From Chloroflexota bacterium (GTDB lineage: Bacteria; Chloroflexota; Anaerolineae; UBA1429): a DNA stretch of 64,000 bases. The notes under the pieces were generated by a model that saw nothing but the letters and a program-made list of their open reading frames with translations, was not told the origin of the DNA and searched no databases. The position numbers and the translations under genes are program-made. The DNA is taken from contig JAJFUJ010000139.1 of the NCBI GenBank assembly GCA_021372475.1, positions 9,535 to 73,534 of the forward strand, given 5' to 3'. Shown here one piece after another: positions 5,700 through 63,285 of the stretch; the first letter of the stretch is position 1; every line of letters begins with the position of its first letter.

Positions 5700-7622
5700 C
5701 TAATTGGGCACATTCAAGCTGGCCAGGTCGATGTAATCCCCCAGCTCCTGGCCGTTTTTGCTGATGTGCAGACGTTCCCCGCCTTCCAGTTTGTACAATC
5801 CTATGCGGAGTGTCAGTTCCCCGGCCTGAGCGGTATCGGGAAGCAGAATGCCATAACGGTCGATGATATCTGCGCCAGGCTGCCAGGTGGTGGTCAACGC
5901 TGCTCCGCCACCCGGCTCGCTGTCGCGTTGGGCGACAATCTGGCCGTTCTCATCGAGCAGGTGGATGAACACCTTGTACCGCTCCGGGATGGCTGCTGCG
6001 GCCCGCCAATACAGCGCAACCTGGACGACATCCCCCGGCTTAACCCGCGGCGTTGTCAGCGTGTAACCCTCCAGTAAAATGGCATCTCCGAAAGCCAGGT
6101 CTGTTGATACCTGTGGCTGGCTGGATACCTCGGACGGCACCGCATACATAACCAGGCGCAAGTCGCCGTACCAGCGGTCGAGAGCCTTGTAGGTGTGCTG
6201 GTCCAGCCAGGTTTCGATAAAACGCCCCGGGTCGCTCTCATCGGTAGCCCAAAGGATGCCATATATACGCTTATGGGCGGCTACCAGTTCTTCCAACTGT
6301 CCCAGTACTATTTCCTGGTTCAGCGGTCGCGTCAACGGTAATGGTACGAGCTGCTGCGGCCCGTGAAAATAGTAGCCAACCGTCTCAACCTGGCTGGGAG
6401 CGTTTATCAGGATTGCATCGTTAGCCCCGGCCGTCCGTTGTATCTCTGCCACGATACCCCGATAATCATCGCGATAGAAGGCAGGGTCATAATATAGATG
6501 AGCTAGTGATACCAGTGAGGTGCTTAGTGCAAGCCCCAGGACTAGCGCAGTCAAAGCCCAGGCAACCCAACGCTTGCGCAACAAGCCATACGTTAACTGA
6601 CCTATTTCGATGGTTGCGCTGGCAAGCAGCAGTGCAAAAGCCGGATGCACCAGCAGCAGAAATTTGTCCTTCAGGAAGGGGCGTGAAAGCGATAATATGT
6701 AAAAGATAACCAGGGGGACCGCCAGGTAGAGGGTATATATCCAGGAGCGCTGCCTGCGTATGAGTGGGAGTATCACAGCAAGGCTCAGCATCACAATCCC
6801 GAGGATAACCACCAACTGACTTAACGGAATGGTTATGCCAAAGGCGAGCACCTGTCCAGCGCGCGCGAACAGTTGCCAGGCCGAGAGCGCTTCCCCTGCG
6901 GCCGGCCAGTTGGTAAGCGACCGCCACGATACAAGCAGCCATGGAATATACGCCGCAACCAAAAGGGCTTGCATACCGAGCCAGCGCAGTATCCACCCCC
7001 AGGAACGTTCTTTACCCTGGGCAAGCCATAACGCTAATACTGCACAGCTCTGCGCAAATATCACTGCAAAGGTGACATAATGGCTGTATACTGCACCGAT
7101 GCTGAGCGCCAGGTAGCCTATCGCCATCCCCCAGTGCCAGTGTTTTAACGGGGACGGCTTATCAGCTTCAGTGAGTTTGATAAAAGCCAACCATGAGGCA
7201 GCGCCCAGTAGCGCAGCCCACTCGTACATGCGCGTTTCCTGCGAGTAATAAACCTGCAGTGGTGATAGTGCGGTATACAAGGCCGCCAATACAGCCGCAT
7301 CGCGGTGCAGCAGCACACGTCCCAATATATATACAACCAGCACCAGGGCGCAGCCGGCCAGGGCTGAAAGGGCGCGTGCCGCAAATTCGGATATGCCTGC
7401 CAGCCTGACCCAGTAGTGCAGGACGAGGTAATAAAACGGGGGGTGTATATCGGCTGCGGCGTTGCGCAGGATAGTGGGGATATCGCGCTGCGCCAGCGCG
7501 ATGGTCGTGCCCTCATCGTTCCACAAGCTTTGTGCACCAAGGCGATAAAAGCGCAATACGGCAGCCAACAGCAGGATGACGGTCAGCAGCGCCCATTGCC
7601 AGCGTTCAGCTTTGCCCTTCAC
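5700..7622 (-). CDS. GT39/GT83-type (PMT/ArnT-like) membrane glycosyltransferase with a C-terminal extracytoplasmic domain
   Basis: Multi-TM N-terminal half with RFYRLGAQSLWNDEG, typical of PMT_2/ArnT-like glycosyltransferases. The listed ORF starts with TTG at 7667, overlapping the upstream gene by 62 nt. A GTG at 7620-7622 preceded by GAAGAGGGG gives a 14-nt overlap and is the more plausible start. Confidence 0.75.
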   Translation of the reverse strand: MKGKAERWQWALLTVILLLAAVLRFYRLGAQSLWNDEGTTIALAQRDIPTILRNAAADIHPPFYYLVLHYWVRLAGISEFAARALSALAGCALVLVVYILGRVLLHRDAAVLAALYTALSPLQVYYSQETRMYEWAALLGAASWLAFIKLTEADKPSPLKHWHWGMAIGYLALSIGAVYSHYVTFAVIFAQSCAVLALWLAQGKERSWGWILRWLGMQALLVAAYIPWLLVSWRSLTNWPAAGEALSAWQLFARAGQVLAFGITIPLSQLVVILGIVMLSLAVILPLIRRQRSWIYTLYLAVPLVIFYILSLSRPFLKDKFLLLVHPAFALLLASATIEIGQLTYGLLRKRWVAWALTALVLGLALSTSLVSLAHLYYDPAFYRDDYRGIVAEIQRTAGANDAILINAPSQVETVGYYFHGPQQLVPLPLTRPLNQEIVLGQLEELVAAHKRIYGILWATDESDPGRFIETWLDQHTYKALDRWYGDLRLVMYAVPSEVSSQPQVSTDLAFGDAILLEGYTLTTPRVKPGDVVQVALYWRAAAAIPERYKVFIHLLDENGQIVAQRDSEPGGGAALTTTWQPGADIIDRYGILLPDTAQAGELTLRIGLYKLEGGERLHISKNGQELGDYIDLASLNVPN

Positions 7623-25078: not shown

Positions 25079-25306
25079 GAGGGTGTTGAAAAAGAGGTTC
25101 TTTCCTTATACTTGCCCACTGGGAAACAGGAAGCGTCATTCCGGCGCAGGCCGGAATCCAGCATTGATCTGATATATAGTGTAATATATCATATCATAAA
25201 ACGAATAAAAGCAAGACTCGGATGGGTTCCTGCCTGCGCGGGAATGATCTGCGAGTTCGCAACTCTGTCTTTCAGACACTGCGGTATCTCCTATTGGATA
25301 CTTTTT
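25079..25306 (+). mobile_element. Miniature inverted-repeat element, copy 1 (about 228 bp, non-coding)
   Basis: Perfect 16–17 bp terminal inverted repeats (C)GAGGGTGTTGAAAAAG ... CTTTTTCAACACCCTC(G). Internal palindrome CATTCCGGCGCAGGCCGGAATC. Roughly 85–90% identical to the copies at 46328-46555 (reverse orientation) and 62811-63198. Confidence 0.85.
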
Positions 25307-25494
25307 CAACACCCTCGCTGTTTTTTGCCTTGATAGCATTTGATATATAATGGCGTAGTGTAATAATAGAAAAGTGTAATCCCGTTGCACGATGCCTGAA
25401 AGCGGGAGATAACCTTTCTGCCTCAGCAAGCTAACGGCTTTGCCACTGTTAGCTAAATGCTGAGAGCAAACCCATAGGAAGGAGGCAATACCCC

Positions 25495-37618: not shown

Positions 37619-37954
37619 AAGAGCTCCTCTTGAGAGTGCTAATCATTGCCTGTATATCACAAATCCGGATGGTCGGCAAGCATACTGGTTGGAAATGTCG
37701 GCATCACAATGGTAAATGCTAGCACCAACTGATTACTAAACAGTTATTATGGCTGGCTTAGGATTTGCGACCATAACCAATCTTGCAACATATGGGTCCG
37801 AAATCATATACAACCTGTATCAGCATCTCGAGATGAAAAAGTTGAAACATAAAGCCGAGTGATTATCTACTCGGCTCTTTATGTCTGTACGCCCAGGGTA
37901 GGGTCGAACGCTCAACAGGCGGATTTGTAGTACTCACAGAGCCTCAATTAGCAA

Positions 37955-44524: not shown

Positions 44525-46285
44525 CTAGCGACAAATTAACACAGGGAACCATGCTTCGCGCAGGACGAGATCCACTGTACTGCCGAGAAATGCTTTCAAC
44601 AAGGGCTTGTATCCATATCCGCCCATAATGAGTATGCTGGCGTTTTCCTCGCGCATGATACTTAGGATAACTTCATGCGGCTGGCCGGACTCGAACCGTG
44701 ATTCAATTGTCGTTTTGGCCGAATGTCCTACATATTGCCATGCAGCATCCAGCATCTCACGGGAGGTGCGCTGGCCGGCTACGGTTAAAATGACGCCCTC
44801 CAGCCGCCAGCGCGAGATGAGTTCGCGCATAACAAAGAGCGCTTCACGCGACTTGGGGCTGCCGTCATAAGCCAGTAATAGCTTTTGAGGGGCTCGGGTC
44901 AAAGTGCCGGGCACAGCCAGGATTGGCCGTGCGGCTTTTTCAGCAACACCATGGAAAATAGTGCCGAGAGGGACATCAGCCCATTGGCCATGCACTTTGC
45001 GCTGGTTAATAACAATCAAATCCGACCAGTGAGCCTTCTCAATGATGCGTTGCTCGATATCGCCAACCTCAAGACTGGTAGTAAATGGAATGCCCATCCC
45101 CTGGCAGCGGAAGGCAAACTCCTGGAGGATCATTTCACCTTGCTTGTGTGCTTCGGGGGTATCGTTCAGCAGCACGTGCAGCCCGTGCAATACGCCGCTC
45201 TCGCGGCGCGCAATCTCTCCGGCCTGGCTGAGTGCCAGCCATCCGGTTTCTGCGCCGCTTACCGCCACCAAGATGTCGCGGAACAGGCTGGTTACAGTCT
45301 CTTGATCCAGTCTCTCTTCCCTCCACGTACCTGCGCGCGGGCCTGCCTCTAATTGGCTGGGAGCCAGCCTATCCAGGAGGTTGACCCAGAACCGTTCCAG
45401 GACCCTTTGCGGTCGGCGGCTAAAACGGGATACAAAGTCGAGCGCAGCCTGTTCGGGCGTGATATTGTGTTGATACCTCTTGGATAGATAGTAAGCATGA
45501 TCGATAACCCACAGGTAAAGATCAGTTTCTGTTTGGCTTGGGAAATCGCGATTAAGGTGCTTCTTACGAATGGCTTTGACGAAGGGCAGATAGGTGTTGT
45601 CATACCAGTCGATAACAGCTTCTCCCCAACTGCTGGGTTGGGCGCGTTTCTGGTCGATAAAGTATCTATGTACATAGATATGATCGAGCAGCCGCGCGTA
45701 GGAATCCGGCCTAGTTGCGCGGATATTGGCACCCGGACGAAGTTCATCCAGTCTGGTTGCCTTGATGAAATCGCTGTAGGGACCGAGCAGGTCCAAGTCC
45801 TCCATGGTTAGCTCGGCAGTGACGGGCACGCGGCTCTCAACCTCGATCACTTCCGCATCGATATATGTCTGCCCCTGGTGTCTGGCAACCGACACGCGGT
45901 GATGCCCGTCCACAACAAAATAGGCCTCGCCCACTTTATAGAGCTTAATTGGCGGGAGGTACACTCCGCGGATATTGGCGCTATCAACGCTCATCCATTT
46001 GGAACTGGAATGCTGTTGGGTGGGGGCGAAAATGCGGTCAAAATCACCGCTGCGGTCAAGGCTGCCGATGATCTGCGCGATGGGCACAGCCTGAATTCCG
46101 CGGTAACGTTGGTGGGTCATCTCAACCACGCGCTGCAAATAGCTAAAGGGAACCAGACCGCTGCTGCGGCCTGTTAACCGTTCGCGGAAGCGCCGCGTGC
46201 GCGCACCTCGCAAAGCCTGGTCATAATGCCTGCGGACTAGCACTTCCATAGGCATCTGTTCGGAGTTGGAATCTGATTTTCTCAT
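44525..46285 (-). CDS. ParB/Srx-like domain protein fused to tandem universal-stress-protein (UspA) domains
   Basis: ParB-like motif KVGEAYFVVDGHHRVSVARHQG. Two C-terminal USP-like α/β modules (…LLAYDGSPKS…; …ILIMGGYG…). The true start is uncertain (about 46250-46285), because the listed 698-aa ORF runs into the MITE at 46328-46555. Confidence 0.55.
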   Translation of the reverse strand: MRKSDSNSEQMPMEVLVRRHYDQALRGARTRRFRERLTGRSSGLVPFSYLQRVVEMTHQRYRGIQAVPIAQIIGSLDRSGDFDRIFAPTQQHSSSKWMSVDSANIRGVYLPPIKLYKVGEAYFVVDGHHRVSVARHQGQTYIDAEVIEVESRVPVTAELTMEDLDLLGPYSDFIKATRLDELRPGANIRATRPDSYARLLDHIYVHRYFIDQKRAQPSSWGEAVIDWYDNTYLPFVKAIRKKHLNRDFPSQTETDLYLWVIDHAYYLSKRYQHNITPEQAALDFVSRFSRRPQRVLERFWVNLLDRLAPSQLEAGPRAGTWREERLDQETVTSLFRDILVAVSGAETGWLALSQAGEIARRESGVLHGLHVLLNDTPEAHKQGEMILQEFAFRCQGMGIPFTTSLEVGDIEQRIIEKAHWSDLIVINQRKVHGQWADVPLGTIFHGVAEKAARPILAVPGTLTRAPQKLLLAYDGSPKSREALFVMRELISRWRLEGVILTVAGQRTSREMLDAAWQYVGHSAKTTIESRFESGQPHEVILSIMREENASILIMGGYGYKPLLKAFLGSTVDLVLREAWFPVLICR

Positions 46286-46327
46286 ACGTAAAGCCAGTAT
46301 AACATAGGCCGTACATTCTACGTAATC

Positions 46328-46555
46328 GAGGGTGTGGAAAAAGTATCCCAATGGAGACCCCCCGAGTATCTGAAATGACAGGGTTGCGAACTCGCATAGC
46401 ATTCCCACGCAAACAGGAATCCATCCGAGTCTTGTTATTATATGATATACCCCACTATATATCAGATTGATACTGGATTCAGGCCTGCGCCGGAATGACG
46501 CTTCCTGTTTCCTAATGGGCAAGTATAAGAACAGACCTCCTTTTTCAATGCCCTC
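46328..46555 (-). mobile_element. Miniature inverted-repeat element, copy 3 (reverse orientation)
   Basis: TIRs GAGGGTGTGGAAAAAG ... CTTTTTCAATGCCCTC. Flanked by GTAATC / GTAACC (a possible 6-bp target-site duplication with 1 mismatch). Confidence 0.8.
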
Positions 46556-46841
46556 GTAACCAACGGTTGACAAACCCAGGGTTCCTATTATTATATAGTT
46601 ATAAGGCGTTGATGAGGACAAGTAACTCTGCTTGCTTATTCAGCGAGCCGCCGTTGATGCAAGGGCGGCTAACCAAGTAGAGCGAATTCCACCTCGGAGC
46701 CGGGCACGATGAGTGCTCCCGGGAGCTTCCGTTACCGAGCATAATACGAGGCCGGCGTGTAAACCCGGCGCACTTAGGTGGCACCACGAAAGCAAACGCT
46801 TCTCGTCCTAACGAGAAGCGTTTTTGCGTTATGAAAGGAGC

Positions 46842-48195: not shown

Positions 48196-48281
48196 GGAGG
48201 GATGGCAGAGCGGTTTAATGCGGCGGTCTTGAAAACCGTTGATCGCAAGATCCGGGGGTTCGAATCCCTCTCCCTCCGCCT
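48196..48281 (+). tRNA. tRNA-Ser(UGA), long variable arm
   Basis: Acceptor GGAGGGA/TCCCTCC, anticodon loop CTTGAAA, T-loop GGTTCGAATCC. Manual fold. Confidence 0.8.
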
Positions 48282-48302
48282 TGGTTGGTTTGGCGTGCAC
48301 TA

Positions 48303-48396
48303 GGGGAGGTGCCGGAGTGGTCGATCGGGGCCGCCTGCTAAGCGGTTGTAGGGCCTTTAAGCTCTACCCAGGGTTCGAATCCCTGCCTCCCCGCCA
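48303..48396 (+). tRNA. tRNA-Ser(GCU), long variable arm, CCA encoded
   Basis: Acceptor GGGGAGG/CCTCCCC, anticodon loop CTGCTAA, T-loop GGTTCGAATCC, 3' GCCA. Confidence 0.8.
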
Positions 48397-48445
48397 TTGT
48401 TAGGGATTTGATGTTTGCTGTGCATCGTACTATTATTTGATTATT

Positions 48446-48518
48446 GCGCCCGTACCTCAATGGATAGAGGACCGGACTACGAATCCGTCTGTTGGGCGTT
48501 CGACCCGCCCCGGGCGCA
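48446..48518 (+). tRNA. tRNA-Arg(ACG)
   Basis: Acceptor GCGCCCG/CGGGCGC, D-loop TCAATGGATAGAG, anticodon loop CTACGAA, T-loop GCGTTCGACCCGCC. Confidence 0.8.
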
Positions 48519-48636
48519 CAGATATTGCAAAAGCCGATAGTGGTATCAAGATTCCTACTATTATCGGCTTTAGATTAGCAAATGACCGCTTTATGATGCA
48601 ATAGCGAATGCTGTTTCTTTTTAGCAGGTTCTCTGC

Positions 48637-49746
48637 TTATGTTAGTTCGACAGCCCCGAATGGATCAAGTAACTCTATCTTTCTCAAGTAGAGTCCTACC
48701 AGCCACAATTTTATGGGAGTTCGTTCTGCAAGGCGTTGGTAAACATCACATATCAACGCGCTGTTAGGCCGGCATCCGCTAACCCAAAGGCGCATTCCTA
48801 CAATAAAATCACGCACCCATTCCTTACCCCCCGCAATACTCGAGTAGGTATCCTCACATTGCAAAAAGCCCGGGACAATGTCTCCGTTCTCCAGCGGGTG
48901 GCTGGGCAGGGATACGGCCCTTTTCTCCTTGCCTACGCACCAAAGCAGCCGTTCAATAAAACGGAAAGCCTTGGGTGCGCAAAGCCACGAATCATGTATG
49001 AAACTCTGAAACCATGACCAATCCGGACATATCTCAGACAGGCGTCTCTCGATTTGTTGAACCTCTGGGACTTGCAGCTCCGCAAAATATGGATCATAGA
49101 ATCTAGGATTGCCATAGTGCCCCTGCTCGTTTCCGCCGCCGCACTGCGTGTCGCCCAAGAACTGATCGCGACAATAGAGGTTCCTGTGATCGTCATCCCA
49201 AACGAGCGACTTGATCCACCAGCGCTGCCGGTGGACTATCCTGCGAAGTAAAAGCTCCTTGAGCTCTGACCGCTCCCCGAGCACTTCCCATAGAGCTGCA
49301 CATACCTGCTGCCAGTTGATATCCGCATTGCCGCGCATGGAGAGTTCAAGAGCCGCCTGTCGAGGTACAGCCCCTGCGAGCCAGGCGTCCAGACAGAAGA
49401 CATAATCTAGCATGCGTTCTTTCCGCTCTCTACTCGCGGTATAGCAGCCATGCACGAACGTTTGTGGAGTTTGTTTACCAATAGCATCCAGAACATCCAG
49501 ATACGGGGAAGGGAACGCCCAGTGCGGACAGAAAGGAGGGAAATTGATTGATCTTTCCACGATATCCTGTGCCCAGCGAGGTACAGGTTCCAGGCGCTTT
49601 TCCTGCTCGAAGAGGCACCGTAGGGCTTTATCGCATTGCAATTCCGGACAACGATCCCAACCTTGATCGTAAGGTGTATACGCCCAGCATCGGCTGGAAA
49701 TGCTGTCCAGATAAGCCTCTCTGAACCATGGCATCTTTTCAGTCAT
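48637..49746 (-). CDS. Hypothetical Trp/Cys-rich protein (orphan; sole ORF of a tRNA-Arg-flanked islet)
   Basis: 369 aa with about 18 Trp (about 5%) and about 14 Cys. No recognisable motif. Flanked by AT-rich sequence. Confidence 0.5.
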   Translation of the reverse strand: MTEKMPWFREAYLDSISSRCWAYTPYDQGWDRCPELQCDKALRCLFEQEKRLEPVPRWAQDIVERSINFPPFCPHWAFPSPYLDVLDAIGKQTPQTFVHGCYTASRERKERMLDYVFCLDAWLAGAVPRQAALELSMRGNADINWQQVCAALWEVLGERSELKELLLRRIVHRQRWWIKSLVWDDDHRNLYCRDQFLGDTQCGGGNEQGHYGNPRFYDPYFAELQVPEVQQIERRLSEICPDWSWFQSFIHDSWLCAPKAFRFIERLLWCVGKEKRAVSLPSHPLENGDIVPGFLQCEDTYSSIAGGKEWVRDFIVGMRLWVSGCRPNSALICDVYQRLAERTPIKLWLVGLYLRKIELLDPFGAVELT

Positions 49747-49825: not shown

Positions 49826-49870
49826 ACTACGAATCCGCCTATTGGGCGTTCGACCCGCCCCGGGCGCACA
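49826..49870 (+). repeat. Direct repeat of the 3' 45 nt of tRNA-Arg(ACG) (att-like)
   Basis: ACTACGAATCCGcCTaTTGGGCGTTCGACCCGCCCCGGGCGCACA matches tRNA positions 48476-48520 at 43 of 45 nt. Confidence 0.85.
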
Positions 49871-50095
49871 GTAGCCTAAATCCGATTGACGGACACTTGT
49901 TCCGTTAGTCGGATTTTCGTTCTCAATAGACAGATTTACTTTCTCCCTACTAACGGACTCCCTCACAAAGCTTGCCTGAATATTGCCGTAGTTTTGCCTA
50001 AAACGACTTTCAGGAGACCGCTACTTGGCAGCCGCGCTAGTTGGAGTAAAATCATACATACTAATCCAGCATTCATTTTCCACCGAAGGCGTATA

Positions 50096-52272: not shown

Positions 52273-52319
52273 CATACAGCGCTGCTGGTGATAGACTGCA
52301 GAAAAGTGAGGATCCGGAA

Positions 52320-52546
52320 TAGTATCCAGCACACAGCGTTCAGAGAGCTTCTACCTGGCTGCAATAGAAGCCGCCAAAAGGCTGGGAAATGGGCCGGTGA
52401 ACTGCTGAGGTGATAAGCCTCGGCCGGGATGATACTCGTTATCACATATTGAGGGAAGAACGATCGGCATAAATCGTTCTTAATCAGGGTGGCACCGCGA
52501 GATAACCTCTCGTCCCTGTTATACACAACAGGGCGGGAGGTTTTTA
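52320..52546 (+). promoter_or_regulatory. T-box riboswitch leader for trpS
   Basis: Conserved T-box sequence AATCAGGGTGGCACCGCGAG (52482-52501). Terminator hairpin CCTCTCGTCCCTGTT...AACAGGGCGGGAGG plus TTTTTATTT (52506-52549). Candidate UGG specifier in ...GAAAUGGG.... Confidence 0.7.
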
Positions 52547-52566: not shown

Positions 52567-53622
52567 ATGGAACGTAAGCGCATATTGACTGGAGACAGGC
52601 CTACTGGCAAACTCCATCTGGGACACTATGTAGGTAGCCTGGCTAATCGCGTTAGGCTGCAGGATGAATACGATTGTTTTTTTATTGTGGCGGACCTGCA
52701 TACTCTGACAACCCGCCCTGAAAAGGAGCATATTGAAGCACTGCGCCAAAACGTCCATGACGTTGTGCTGGATTACCTATCGGTGGGAATCGATCCGGCG
52801 CGCAGCGTCATCTATCTACAGTCCGCTGCGCCCGCCGTCTATGAGATGAACCTCTTCTTTGAAATGCTGGTAACGCTGCCCAGGCTGCAGCGCGTGCCCA
52901 GCATCAAGGATATGGCGCGGGCGGCTAACCTGAATGATGAAACCCTGCCGTTCGGTTTGGTCGGTTACCCAGTGCTGCAGGCGGCCGATATCCTGATGCC
53001 GCGCGCCAACCTGGTGCCCGTGGGCAGAGATAACGAGGCGCATGTTGAGGTTGCACGCGAGATTGCGCGGCGTTTTAACTATCTGTACGGTGAGGTATTT
53101 CCCCTGCCGGAAGTGATGGTTGGCGAGGTGCCATCCCTTATCGGCACCGACGGCCAGGCTAAAATGTCCAAGAGCCTGGGTAATGCCATCTTTTTATCCG
53201 ACGATGCCAAAACTGTCACTCGTAAGGTGACTGGTATGTACACTGACCCTAACCGTATCAGCGCAGATATTCCGGGTCAGGTAGAGGGGAACCCGGTCTT
53301 TGCCTACCACGATGCCTTTAACCCTAACCTTGCCGAGGTTGAGGACCTTAAAGCGCGCTACCGCCAAGGTAAAGTGGGTGATGTCGAGGTAAAAGACAAG
53401 CTTACGCGCGCACTGAATACCTTTATGGATCCGATTCGCGAGCGCCGGGCCACATTCGAAGCCCAGAAGGGATTAGTTGAACAGGTGATATACGAAGGAA
53501 CCCAGCGTGCATCCCATGAGGGCGAAGAGACCGTCTTGCTGATGCGCAAGGCAATGGGTTTATCGGGCCTGTGGAATCGTATCTCACGCAAAGCGCGCGA
53601 GGCGCAGGAGGCCAAAGCCTGA
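52567..53622 (+). CDS. trpS: Tryptophanyl-tRNA synthetase
   Basis: Class I motifs [14 protein letters not shown] (HIGH) and KMSKS. 351 aa. Confidence 0.93.
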
Positions 53623-53628
53623 ATTCTA

Positions 53629-54363
53629 TCAACGGGGCACAAAATAAGGAGAAGGCTGGTCGTGCTGTTTTCTACGCGTGACCAGCCCAATCAGCAGACC
53701 ATATACAAAACCGCCGACATGGGCGAACCAGGCAGTCCCCCCACTGGCACTCGTAACCACCGAAGCCGCTCCGTTAAATAATTGCAGGATAAACCAGAAG
53801 CCCAATACCAACAGCGCCGGCAATGTTGTTATCCTGATAAAGCCCAGAATTACGATAATCCCCTTAACGCGTTGGCGCGGGAAGAGCACCAGATAAGCGC
53901 CCAACACGGAAGCTATGGCGCCGCTGGCGCCCAGGATGGGCACTTCAGAGGAAGGATCTACTGCTACCTGAACCAACGAAGCGATAACCCCGCCAGCCAG
54001 GTAGAAAAGGAGATATGCAACATGCCCGAGATGATCCTCGATATTATCACCAAAAATCGCCAGGTAAAGCATATTGCCGATAATATGCTGCCAACTGGCG
54101 TGCATAAACATCGCGCTGAGTAAGGTGAATACCGAAGGCAAGTCCGGACTAACGGTGATGCGCGCAGGGATTAGCGCGGCTGTGGAAATAAACCGGTTCA
54201 AGGCGGGCCCTGAGAGCAGTGCCTCGTATAGCCATACAATGACATTTAGCGCGATCAATATCCAGTTGACAACTGTGGGCCTTCTGCGTGGGGTGTCATC
54301 GCCAATTGGTATCATCCGTATGCCTCTCGTAGAATCTGCAGTTGTTATTATACAATAAACCAA
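53629..54363 (-). CDS. Rhomboid-family intramembrane serine protease
   Basis: Six TM helices. Catalytic GASGAI (Ser) and a downstream His in the last TM helix (AHVGGF). Confidence 0.8.
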   Translation of the reverse strand: MVYCIITTADSTRGIRMIPIGDDTPRRRPTVVNWILIALNVIVWLYEALLSGPALNRFISTAALIPARITVSPDLPSVFTLLSAMFMHASWQHIIGNMLYLAIFGDNIEDHLGHVAYLLFYLAGGVIASLVQVAVDPSSEVPILGASGAIASVLGAYLVLFPRQRVKGIIVILGFIRITTLPALLVLGFWFILQLFNGAASVVTSASGGTAWFAHVGGFVYGLLIGLVTRRKQHDQPSPYFVPR

Positions 54364-54427
54364 ACACTATATCAGACTGAAACTTGCTTGTTCATCGTGC
54401 GGCCATATAATTGTAATCTGTTTTGCA

Positions 54428-57403
54428 TTGCAGCAAATGCCCAAGGGGGTGTTAGTGACAGCGAATACCACGCCAATGCCTTCACGCGATACCGCAGCCA
54501 AACCCGAGGATGAGAATACCTTGCAGAGGCAGGCGTCCAGCAGTCTGCCACGGCCTCCCATACGTGGCTTTGTCGGTCGGATTGGAGAATTGCATGCTCT
54601 TGAACAAGCTCTGGCGGCCGACAGCAGCACTGCGCTGATAAGCATAACTGGGTCGGAAGGCAATGGAAAAACCGCTTTGGCCGCTCAGGCTGCTCGCAAC
54701 CTGGCTGCCCAGGGGGTCTTTAGGCAAGTTGTCTACAGCAATTTTGCTGGGGGAGGTGGTGTGGATGCTGCCCTATGGGAGCTTTACGCCGTTCTGCCGC
54801 AAAAGGTCGATCCTCATGTCGATAACACCGCTCAACTAAAGCAATGCCTCGCAGACTCCTCTACACTCATCCTCTGGGATCATCTCGAGGCGCTGCTGCC
54901 CGAAGGCGACGCGCCTGTAGTAGAGTCAGAGCTGCGAACCTTGCTGCAATTCGGGGTCCAGCTCTCCGGAGCTGGGTGCAAGCTGTTAATTATCTCGGAT
55001 AAGCCGTTGCCGGGATTTAATAGCTTCCCTGCGAGCCTGTCGCTGCCGGAACTCGGGCCTCTTACGGATGCCGACGCACGCGAGCTGCTTCAAGCGGTCA
55101 GCCCTCCCGCACTTGCGGCCGAAGATGCCGACCGAGTGCTCAAGCTCAGTTACAATCAGCCCATTGCGATCCAAGCGTTGGCCGCTCTCTTGCACCACTT
55201 CACACCCGTTGACCTCTACACGATGATTGAGCAGGTGCTGCCGGGGTCGACCACTTCCGGCATTTGGAGCGGGCAGCAAGCCCACGAAATGGCTCTGAGC
55301 GCGATCTGGCAAACCTTATCAGTTGAATCCAGAGAATCGCTCTATGGTTTGGGGATATTCTTGACCGGTGGAATGGAACGGCTCGTCAACCAGGTTGAAG
55401 CGAAGGATGCCGAGTCCTGGCGCCGCTTTCTATTACTGACCACCCAATGCGGGCTAATATATCAAGAACAGGTTGCACCTTTGGCGATCCCGTATCTGCA
55501 TTTACACCCAGCCCTGCTGCACTTTACTCAGCGCCACCTCGCGCGTGAAGCGCGGCTACAGCTAAATGCATGGTACTGTGCCAGTTATCTCGGCCTTTTA
55601 AAATGGATCCACGAGCAGGAAAAGCGTTCCAACAGAGAATTGCTTCAACTGCTTTGGATTGAGATGCCCAATTTCCGCCGCGCGTTTGCTTTACTTGCCT
55701 CCAGCCAGCAGCTCACCTATATCCAAGAGTACAGCCAGGCACTGAGTTATGCCATGGACAAGTTCGGATTGCAGAGGGAAATCGAGTTCGTCGGTGAAGT
55801 CGTTCGTTCGCTAATGCAGGCCGCTTTGCCCAAGGACGGTCCATTGGCGCGAAATGGCGTGTTGTTTATGCTGGAGCAGGTCCAAAAATTGCTCGATGCT
55901 GGCAAAGGGCAGCAGGCAGTTGCTATCCTGCAGCCAATGTGCCAGCGTATCGAAAAAGACGACCAGCTCGCCTACAAAGGAGATGATGCCAAGTTTGACC
56001 GGGCCCGAGCGAATCACCTGCTCGGTAAAGCCTTGGTAGTGAATAACAAACTACCGGTGGCGCTTGCGGCCATGTTGCGCGCCCTCACGATGTTCGATCA
56101 ACTCACAAACCAAACTGACGCTCGTACAGAGATGCTCGAACTACTACTCGACCTTACCGATCTGCTGCTTACTGCCCGTGAGATAGATCAGGCGAAAAAG
56201 ATAGCCGAACGAGGATTGCTCGTCGCTGCCGATCTCGACGATAAAGAAGCTTTAGGGAAGCTCAATTACCGTTTGGCGTTAATTACCCAGCAACACCAAG
56301 ATCACGAGCTGTCGCAGCGCTACGCCTCACAAGCTCTGGATTACTATCAGGCTGCCGCAAATCCGGAGGGGCAAGCTGAAGCCTGGCGTCATTTGGCAAT
56401 GCTCAGCGTGCAGCGGGAAAGGGCCGACGACGCGATTCAGCAATTAAACCAGGCACTGGAGCTAGCCCGACAAGCATCCAATAAGCTGCTTGAGGCGGAC
56501 ATTCTGGTTCGGCTAGGTACGATTTGCACACAGAAAGAACGCCCAAATGAGGCGGAGGCCAACTATATTTTGGCATTAGGTATCTACCAAGATCACCATT
56601 TCAAACCAGGTCAGGCATCTACCGAAGTCTTGTTAAGCGAATTGCTCCTTAATAATGGACAAGCTGCTAGCGCTCGTATCCATGCTGAAGCTGCAAGAGC
56701 TCTGGTTGAAGGGGCAGGGCCAGGCGCTCAGCCCTGGGCGATATTCGACCTGCTGGAACGCATTGCCACGGCAGAAGGCGATTCAGAACGTGCTTTGATG
56801 TGGCGCCGTCGCACGCGTGAGAGCTTTACCGAGGCGCCGCAGGCTGAGCCTATCCTGATGCGCTGGCGTCCGATTTTGCGGAAATTGGCGGCCGCTTGCA
56901 ATGGCGAAACGCTTGATGAAGAGACGCTAGCCAATCTGGATAAAATGGAAGCAGAGATTAACAATCCCGAACTCTTCAACACCATCTGGCGCATCCTAGG
57001 GGGTGAACGCGGGAGCGCGCTATATGAGCCGCTCGGGATTGGTGAGGCTGTAGTCATCAAGCGCCTGCTCGATGGCATCGAACATCCGGCAATCTTGGCA
57101 GAAGCGCCAGGAATCCCTAAAACGAACCAGACGCCTTCCGGTTTCTCTGTCGAGCAGTTTATCTCCGCGGTTAAGGCAGCTCAGCAAGGTGACGCTCAGG
57201 CGATTACTGCGACCGAGAATTTCATCCAGATGCTGGAAAGTAAAGAGGCGCCGCAAACGTTGCACGATTTTGCGGCTGCTATACGGCGCATTTTGGCAGG
57301 CGAGCGCGGCGCTACTATTGCTGACGGCCTGCCCGATGAGCTTGCGCAGGTACTTCAAACCTTGATTATATCTTTGGATGACACGAATTTACCTGCCGAG
57401 TGA
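54428..57403 (+). CDS. STAND/NB-ARC-type P-loop NTPase with a C-terminal TPR-repeat array
   Basis: FVGRIGELHALEQAL...ISITGSEGNGKTALA (Walker A), hhhhDD Walker B (LILWDHLE), then about 500 aa of TPR-like helical repeats. No recognisable DNA-binding or enzymatic effector domain. Confidence 0.65.
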   Translation: MQQMPKGVLVTANTTPMPSRDTAAKPEDENTLQRQASSSLPRPPIRGFVGRIGELHALEQALAADSSTALISITGSEGNGKTALAAQAARNLAAQGVFRQVVYSNFAGGGGVDAALWELYAVLPQKVDPHVDNTAQLKQCLADSSTLILWDHLEALLPEGDAPVVESELRTLLQFGVQLSGAGCKLLIISDKPLPGFNSFPASLSLPELGPLTDADARELLQAVSPPALAAEDADRVLKLSYNQPIAIQALAALLHHFTPVDLYTMIEQVLPGSTTSGIWSGQQAHEMALSAIWQTLSVESRESLYGLGIFLTGGMERLVNQVEAKDAESWRRFLLLTTQCGLIYQEQVAPLAIPYLHLHPALLHFTQRHLAREARLQLNAWYCASYLGLLKWIHEQEKRSNRELLQLLWIEMPNFRRAFALLASSQQLTYIQEYSQALSYAMDKFGLQREIEFVGEVVRSLMQAALPKDGPLARNGVLFMLEQVQKLLDAGKGQQAVAILQPMCQRIEKDDQLAYKGDDAKFDRARANHLLGKALVVNNKLPVALAAMLRALTMFDQLTNQTDARTEMLELLLDLTDLLLTAREIDQAKKIAERGLLVAADLDDKEALGKLNYRLALITQQHQDHELSQRYASQALDYYQAAANPEGQAEAWRHLAMLSVQRERADDAIQQLNQALELARQASNKLLEADILVRLGTICTQKERPNEAEANYILALGIYQDHHFKPGQASTEVLLSELLLNNGQAASARIHAEAARALVEGAGPGAQPWAIFDLLERIATAEGDSERALMWRRRTRESFTEAPQAEPILMRWRPILRKLAAACNGETLDEETLANLDKMEAEINNPELFNTIWRILGGERGSALYEPLGIGEAVVIKRLLDGIEHPAILAEAPGIPKTNQTPSGFSVEQFISAVKAAQQGDAQAITATENFIQMLESKEAPQTLHDFAAAIRRILAGERGATIADGLPDELAQVLQTLIISLDDTNLPAE

Positions 57404-62724: not shown

Positions 62725-62810
62725 CAGCCACCTCTGGGGAAGTTCTAGCGTCAACCGCTATCGAGCGCTTTCCAATGTGCCACAAGCTCAGGCGAATGTC
62801 AAGGCCGTTG

Positions 62811-63198
62811 AGGGTGTTGAAAAAGAGGTTCTGTCCTTATACTTGCCCACTGGGAACAGGAAGCGTCAGGGGCTGTCCGAAAAGTAACAATTTTCCTTTT
62901 TAGACAACTGATTGTAGGGCATACTTGCCAAAATAACGCGGAAAATGATAGTTGCGTGGAAGTTTACCTTCCAATAATAACGAAACTGAGTACATAAGTG
63001 GGAATAGGCTTTAGGGCTATCTGCTTTTTGGACAGCCCCTCCAGTATTAATCTGACATATAATGGAACATATCATATAATAACAGTAATAAAAGCAAGAC
63101 TCAAATGGATCCCTGCTTGCGCGGGAATGCTATGCGAGTTCAAGTTGGTCTTTTCAGACACTATGGTGTCTCCAACTGGATACTTTTTCCACACCCTC
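62811..63198 (+). mobile_element. Miniature inverted-repeat element, copy 2, carrying a nested 170-bp secondary inverted-repeat element (62870-63039)
   Basis: Outer TIRs GAGGGTGTTGAAAAAG ... CTTTTTCCACACCCTC. Perfect 7-bp direct repeat GGCCGTT at 62804-62810 and 63199-63205. The inner element has its own TIRs GGGGCTGTCCGAAAAG / CTTTTTGGACAGCCCC. Confidence 0.85.
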
Positions 63199-63285
63199 GG
63201 CCGTTGACACCTTCCGGGGTGGTTATATAATAGGAGACGAAAGACCTTGGAGAAATGTGTTCATGGAGGGATAGTCTAGAATAGC

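Follow-up and report, generated by a model that had tools for sequence, protein, structure and literature searches.

A miniature repeat family with IS1182-type ends that appears to be positioned by the -35 hexamer of promoters in a Chloroflexota bacterium

Correia elements (CREE) of Neisseria are small elements with terminal inverted repeats (TIRs) that are abundant in intergenic regions, lie beside genes, carry promoters and use a TA target. We know of no transposase for these elements and of no positioning relative to a -35 box. REP/BIME sequences are imperfect palindromes of 20-40 bp with a conserved 5' tetranucleotide, have neither TIRs nor target duplications and are associated with a RAYT gene. 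Other elements return to a recurrent landmark: IS1397 and ISKpn1 insert into REP sequences, and yeast Ty3 integrates at the start sites of genes transcribed by RNA polymerase III. Insertion in REPs has also been described for ISPpu9 (PMC12288879). In the IS1182 family, hairpins are the insertion sites of IS1272 and TnSha1, which remove part of the target and generate no duplication, and other members of the family also target palindromes (PMC4923244, PMC5678879). ISPse1 of Paracoccus produces a 4-bp duplication (PMC3281130), and the IS1182-derived MITEs of Methanosarcina acetivorans, whose partner is ISMac2, display either a 4-bp duplication or none (PMC3852290). To these we can add a 1535-bp IS1182-family element with the TIR GATAGTGTTGAAAAAG, found on Sinorhizobium and Mesorhizobium plasmids (L145 and L147-L151), whose six independent insertions in a GGGTGG-like target carry 4-bp duplications (GGTG, CACC, GGGG, GGTT). 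Here we describe a MITE family from a Chloroflexota bacterium that shares its ends with IS1182 elements. Based on our observations, we propose that this MITE is moved in trans and is positioned by a -35 hexamer, an explanation to which, taken as a whole, we assign a probability of roughly three in four.

The window, by which we mean the entire 64-kb stretch of DNA that was analysed, contains three dispersed copies of the MITE, designated A, B and C (Table 1). All three had been anticipated in the original prediction, at 25079, 46328 and 62811; the limits given there for copy B (46328-46555) stand, while copy A ends at 25316 instead of 25306 and copy C starts at 62810 instead of 62811. When the insert nested in copy C is left out, the copies are 85-88% identical to each other in pairwise comparisons, and with 42-47% G+C they lie below the value of the window (53%). 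The 16-mer GAGGGTGTTGAAAAAG, allowing at most 3 mismatches, has 8 matches in the window, compared with 0.29 expected from shuffles, and a count of 8 was reached in 0/100 shuffles; six of these matches are the ends of copies A, B and C. The repeats had been described as perfect, a description that fits copy A (16/16 positions between left and right TIR, 17 with the flanking C/G), but neither copy C (15/16) nor copy B (13/16). Pfam assignments of the flanking genes (VanW-like and ribosomal S6; Usp-domain and SerS; Iso_dh and S1-domain) bear out the proposed placement between divergent genes in 3/3 cases. The ORFs in the three copies are frame-inconsistent between copies, the MITE of 228-238 bp is devoid of coding capacity, and no homologues of element-encoded peptides were found in 5.8 billion proteins. 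A TIR scan of species-representative genomes is rich in chance 16-mer matches, and the interior of the family was absent from all 116 loci examined among the matches listed. Likewise, the family-specific right-end 22-mer had no match in a metagenome scan, and paired-TIR scans found no paired TIRs in viral contigs.

Table 1. Positions of the MITE copies, their parts and their landing sites (window coordinates unless a contig is named)
Feature	Position	Strand	Remarks
MITE copy A	25079..25316	+	238 bp; between VanW-like gene (-) and rpsF (+)
Left TIR of copy A	25079..25094	+	GAGGGTGTTGAAAAAG
18-bp palindrome in left arm of copy A	25139..25156	+	TTCCGGCGCAGGCCGGAA; missing from copy C
Central promoter-like site of copy A	25169..25197	+	CTGATA-17-TATCAT; points to right end
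Right TIR of copy A	25301..25316	-	perfect inverted copy of left TIR
First target-site duplication of copy B	46322..46327	.	GTAATC; empty site in L127
MITE copy B	46328..46555	-	228 bp; between Usp-domain gene (-) and serS T-box leader (+)
Central promoter-like site of copy B	46437..46465	-	CTGATA-17-TATAAT
Second target-site duplication of copy B	46556..46561	.	GTAACC; one substitution
serS promoter	46567..46594	+	TTGACA-16-TATTAT; -35 box 5 bp past duplication
First target-site duplication of copy C	62803..62809	.	GGCCGTT; after TGTCAA at 62797-62802
MITE copy C	62810..63198	+	389 bp including nested element; between Iso_dh (-, start 62724) and S1-domain gene (+, start 63287)
Nested TIR element	62869..63039	+	171 bp; GGGGCTGTCCGAAAAG ... 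CTTTTTGGACAGCCCC
Central promoter-like site of copy C	63052..63080	+	CTGACA-17-TATAAT; 11/12 matches
Second target-site duplication of copy C	63199..63205	.	GGCCGTT; overlaps TTGACA at 63204-63209
S1-domain gene promoter	63204..63231	+	TTGACA-16-TATAAT; 12/12 matches; 5 bp from copy C end
119-bp MITE beside IS	L136 702-840; L142 1286-1424		4-bp TAAA in common

Each copy is built of 16-bp TIRs followed by about 45 bp of arm sequence, the left arm being unlike the right, with a GC-rich palindromic module in both arms and an AT-rich centre. The modules (25136-25165, 25222-25250 and their equivalents in copies B and C) translate to MGSCLRGND, IPAQAGIHLSL and FPRKQESI, peptides that we take to resemble spurious 'hypothetical proteins' of many phyla; the modules themselves presumably resemble the 20-bp dRS3 repeat of Neisseria (ATTCCC-N8-GGGAAT). 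Could the family, instead of being a transposon, represent a structured non-coding RNA or palindromic repeats of the REP/BIME type? Copy A, folded as single-stranded DNA, does form a long hairpin (-54 kcal/mol, z = -9) and houses an 18-bp REP-like palindrome. However, copy B folds no better than shuffles (z = -1.95), compensatory changes are present in 0/66 consensus pairs with an unfavourable covariation term (three sequences, hence low power), and Rfam returned no match at gathering thresholds and, up to E = 1, only a meaningless miRNA-shaped match at E = 0.25. Moreover, TIRs, duplications and an empty site are hallmarks of a transposon, and whereas REP/BIME repeats, which are mobilized by RAYT transposases, measure 20-40 bp, the MITE is about 230 bp long with TIRs and duplications, only its internal 18-bp palindrome being REP-like. 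We regard an RNA or REP/BIME identity as highly improbable. Structured RNA, which had been put forward as the finding that would speak against a mobile element, was rejected on the folding of copy B, the lack of covariation and the lack of an Rfam match, and the reading as a mobile element stands.

The mobility of the family can be seen at copy B. A relative (L127, GCA_040961035.1), whose SerS is 95% identical, has 92-94% nucleotide identity to the window on both sides of copy B and is collinear with it apart from 46334-46554, where copy B is missing. The relative displays the empty site CTACGTAATCAACGGTTGACA where the window has GTAATC[MITE]GTAACC, so that ...CATTCTACGTAATCAACGGTTGACAAACC... 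in L127 faces ...CTACGTAATC[copy B]GTAACCAACGGTTGACA... in the window; a more distant relative, L129, is also empty at this position. Copy B thus inserted cleanly and duplicated 6 bp of its target, and one of the two target copies has since been changed by one substitution. The duplication of copy C is perfect over 7 bp, and none is recognisable in the flanks of copy A. A contig of 508 bp with the S6 protein ends 35 bp before the position of copy A. Duplications are thus 6-7 bp long in the window, and the range widens to 4-8 bp when all elements with this TIR are considered. The empty site with its duplication in a close relative, together with the IS1182-family elements that have the same ends and are described below, upholds the mobile-element reading of the original prediction: copies A, B and C are a genuine MITE family with IS1182-type ends.

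Copy C offers a second, different case of insertion. Its extra length is the nested 171-bp element, which is unrelated to the MITE. It takes the exact place of the 18-bp palindrome TTCCGGCGCAGGCCGGAA that copies A and B possess, and it has no duplication; the window holds no further copy of it. The nested element has IS1182-like TIRs (GGGGCTGTCCGAAAAG) and matches the published hairpin-replacing behaviour of the IS1182 family.

What could move a MITE with no coding capacity? A tblastn search found no transposase within the 64-kb window. In an Opitutales MAG (L072), a 1598-bp element at 5929-7526 has the 16-mer GAGGGTGTTGAAAAAG at both ends and encodes a transposase of 489 aa, with PF05598 and PF13751, that scores 350 bits on the NCBIfam model NF033551 'IS1182 family transposase' (cutoff 270 bits). 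Two further elements, L130 and L131, with 87% and 71% protein identity to L072, were picked through homology to the L072 protein alone and their contigs were read without the DNA motif; both are bounded by the same 16-mer, which has 0-1 mismatch per end in all three elements. Transposase relatives at 52% identity are bounded by GAGGCTGTTGAAAAA or AGAAGCTGTTGAAAAAG, and at 39% identity the annotated IS1182 elements of Sinorhizobium and Paracoccus plasmids still preserve the core TGTTGAAAAA in their ends, ...GTGTTGAAAAAG or ...CTGTTGAAAAAC. Transposases matching the TIRs, for which a search had been suggested, therefore exist, although in other genomes (L072, L130, L131). Since these IS1182 elements have the same ends as the MITE, we attribute its mobilization to a transposase of this family; most likely, the MITE is moved in trans by a DDE transposase of the IS1182 family whose gene lies in another part of the genome. 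It seems quite unlikely that the transposase belongs outside the IS1182 family and that the ends are merely similar. The duplications of about 5-8 bp, where IS1182 members are documented to make 4 bp or 0 bp, would suit an outside enzyme, as would the lack of an IS1182 gene, with or beside the MITE, in any Chloroflexota locus examined; yet the 16-mer bounds three independent IS1182 elements on either side, of which two were reached via protein homology alone, and the core TGTTGAAAAA is conserved down to 39% protein identity.

The surroundings of the full-length ISs deserve a separate description. On either side of L130 (806-2403), L131 (447-2005) and L132 (1429-3048), as well as of L072, there are repeats of 8-15 bp that are inverted and not direct, as in gatccccgccgcaag-IS-cttgcagcggggatc. 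In an alignment of six IS ends the similarity continues for about 15-20 bp beyond GAGGG; as the flanks are alike across three loci, the true IS tips may lie further out, and the inverted flanks are either hairpin targets or longer IS ends. A MITE of 119 bp with a TIR of GAGGGTGTTGAAAAAG type stands 4 bp from a full-length IS on two metagenome contigs, L136 and L142. Among the matches listed, many loci have two facing TIRs 57-600 bp apart around unrelated interiors, many of them in Anaerolineae and Ardenticatenia and a few in Acidobacteriota, Bacteroidales, Armatimonadota and Atribacterota. Unrelated interiors between the same TIRs indicate that the GAGGGTGTTGAAAAAG-type TIR is common to many MITE families. 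At about 640-747 of L125 two TIR elements lie in tandem, 3 bp apart, and a CCTCAAA duplication overlaps the tip of the first. Several MAG contigs, including L022, L081, L110 and other short contigs of Ardenticatenia and Anaerolineae, start or end inside a TIR element; these repeats thus fragment metagenome assemblies, and counts of copies in MAGs will be too low.

The outward flanks of genuine elements revealed a recurrent hexamer, TTGACA, about 10-13 bp from the tip. Hexamers were counted, as matches to TTGACA at 5 or 6 of 6 positions, in the 36 flanks of 18 TIR elements with an identifiable duplication of 4-8 bp; a paired-TIR scan of metagenomes contributed nine insertions of a 90-bp family. 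The hexamer lies exactly 5 bp beyond the duplication in 10 of the 36 flanks, while every other offset from 0 to 29 is represented by 0-2 flanks; the binomial P of about 1e-15 is for an offset of 5 that was picked after the data were inspected, and it is extreme even allowing for this post hoc choice. A -10 hexamer (TATAAT, at least 5/6) is located 16-18 bp downstream in 7/10 of the hexamer flanks, from which we conclude that the targeted sites are real sigma-70-type promoters. The promoter is on the left of the element in five cases and on the right in five. When ends rather than duplications are taken as the reference, a TTGACA-like hexamer is found 10-13 bp from the tip in 19/78 non-redundant genuine ends versus 2/87 chance-match ends (Fisher P = 2e-5). 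The 5-bp rule is observed in 10/15 Chloroflexota and hot-spring-like loci, and in 0/3 elements from other hosts. A 5-bp spacing to the -35 box across elements sharing the TIR is well supported. A target preference for promoter DNA had been one of two suggestions made for this family; our data support it directly and sharpen it to a -35-like hexamer 5 bp beyond the duplication. In the literature that we searched, we found no description of an insertion rule measured from the -35 box, although this says little about whether the rule is new.

Within the window, the rule is strict in copy B only, and copies A and C follow it approximately. In copy B the duplication, GTAAYC, is followed by AACGG and then by TTGACA-16-TATTAT, and the start predicted for this serS promoter coincides with position 46600, where the Rfam T-box leader begins. 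The target of copy C, TGTCAA-GGCCG-TTGACA, amounts to two back-to-back -35 boxes; one cut lies 5 bp from the right-hand hexamer, and the duplication runs into this hexamer, not away from it. Copy A, which lacks a duplication, is followed after 13 bp on its right by TTGATA (25330-25335), and promoter-like sites flank it on either side. Clear back-to-back hexamers were seen at the MITE targets of copy C and L118 only. A palindrome requirement at MITE targets was also considered and dropped, since short inverted repeats at the other targets are within chance.

Could the same distribution arise from random MITE insertion, with hits in genes and core promoters purged until only copies in short divergent intergenic regions are left? 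All the surviving copies are intergenic, the intergenic regions here are short, so that any insertion falls near a promoter, and copy A has neither a duplication nor the exact spacing, all of which such a history would accommodate. It is opposed by the spacing itself: selection cannot produce a distance that is precise to a single base (10 flanks at offset 5), and the hexamers cluster 10-13 bp from the tip, with none further upstream, where an insertion would be equally harmless. Purifying selection alone is therefore insufficient, though it could explain the intergenic location, and we consider random insertion followed by purging unlikely.

The other suggestion made in the original prediction was co-option, namely that the copies are kept as regulatory modules, which might serve as outward promoters, as upstream A/T tracts or as insulators between divergent promoters. 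All three copies contain a central CTGAYA-17-TATAAT/TATCAT site directed to the right end of the element. At 54347-54375 (-), where the ORFs 53629-54363 and 54428-57403 diverge across a short gap, the window has a native promoter-like site, CTGATA-17-TATAAT. Over 48 nt this site shares 77% identity with the AT-rich centre of the MITE, a similarity that could be cited for co-option; it may be due to chance, or the core may derive from a host promoter. Copy B stands between the serS promoter and the upstream region of the Usp-domain gene, and its insertion may have split a possible TTGATT -35 hexamer of the latter, on the other strand, which could likewise be counted in favour. On the other hand, conservation of the central site does not exceed that of the remaining element (2/12 positions vary, compared with about 86% overall identity), the 93%-identical relative L127 works without copy B, and unrelated interiors, such as that of the 90-bp family, are placed alike, indicating that placement follows the ends and not the cargo. 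Maintenance through co-option is, on balance, rather unlikely. Any effect of the MITE on expression is an inference.

The MITE has a more tangible consequence for gene models. The ORF at 44525-46621 (698 aa) reads through copy B and adds 112 codons to the Usp-domain gene, for which the gene models of two relatives give 586 aa; the true start of this gene is accordingly placed at 46285. The warning that the element generates spurious long ORFs was therefore justified, and MITEs of this type give false N-terminal extensions in annotation, the Usp-domain gene being an example.

Several other features of the window were recorded. T-box leaders are located at 46600-46813 (serS) and at 52300-52520, upstream of a gene starting at 52567. 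Three tRNA genes, Ser-TGA, Ser-GCT and Arg-ACG, lie at 48196-48519. The 3' half (48476-48521) of the tRNA-Arg(ACG) gene (48446-48519) is repeated 1350 bp downstream, at 49826-49871, with 96% identity, and is also present in inverted orientation at 37893-37932, 10.5 kb upstream. Between the two direct repeats is an ORF of 369 aa (48637-49746, -) with no Pfam match, and the tRNA-Arg repeat is present in the relatives L127 and L128 as well. As far as their arrangement goes, these half repeats look like the att-site remains of an integrated element.

How do these features place the MITE among the systems outlined at the beginning? Like the IS1182 ISs (IS1272/TnSha1, ISPse1), it has the terminal GAGGGTGTTGAAAAAG or the core TGTTGAAAAA, and its targets are non-random. 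The ISs, however, are about 1.5-1.6 kb long and carry a transposase, whereas the MITE has 228-238 bp and no transposase gene; they make a 4-bp duplication or none, against about 5-8 bp in MITE-type elements; and the landmark of IS1272/TnSha1 is a hairpin, that of the MITE a -35 hexamer. The family-typical duplication, 4 bp or none in a hairpin, is not what the window MITE displays. Because both the length of the duplication and the -35 landmark differ, we set the MITE-type elements apart from the documented behaviour of IS1182. The ISMac2-partnered MITEs are similarly short (160-169 bp) and share their inverted repeats with an IS1182-family element, but they are archaeal, have repeats of 25-26 bp and have no reported promoter-linked placement (PMC3852290). 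The MITE also shares with ISPpu9, IS1397/ISKpn1 and Ty3 a fixed integration beside a recurrent, harmless landmark; in its case, unlike theirs, ordinary sigma-70-type promoters provide the landmark in the form of their -35 hexamer. Correia elements are comparable in being small, TIR-bearing, intergenic and gene-adjacent and in having promoter sequences. Their ends differ from those of the window MITE.

The mechanism that we envisage runs as follows. At integration, a short staggered cut would give rise to a target duplication of about 5-8 bp. A TTGACA-like hexamer would set the position, such that the duplication ends exactly 5 bp upstream of a sigma-70-type -35 box, and the element would insert beside this box in either orientation. 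It would then occupy the DNA from about -41 upstream and spare the core promoter. Landing upstream of about -41 with the core promoter intact would account for every copy being in a promoter region, between divergent promoters. The elements might form a promoter-homing class, whose transpososome would recognise the TTGACA of the -35 box, be it by itself or on promoter DNA bent by bound RNA polymerase, and make one cut 5 bp upstream of it, a proposal for and against which we see equal weight. A TTGAAA within the TIR, 7 bp from the tip, is a hint that the hexamer is read directly.

What would such a mechanism imply? If the explanation is true, every promoter offers the element a safe harbour, and the DNA upstream of -41 would be systematically rewritten, while for related elements hairpins would be the landing pads, one of them being the palindrome within the MITE itself. 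Our finding ties a widespread set of short repeats to the IS1182 family, whose choice of target is poorly understood. A real rule would also provide a simple, sequence-level reason why elements pile up near promoters and would render insertion sites predictable. In Chloroflexota, many promoters would repeatedly have had the DNA just upstream of them, the seat of UP elements and activator sites, swapped for mobile DNA.
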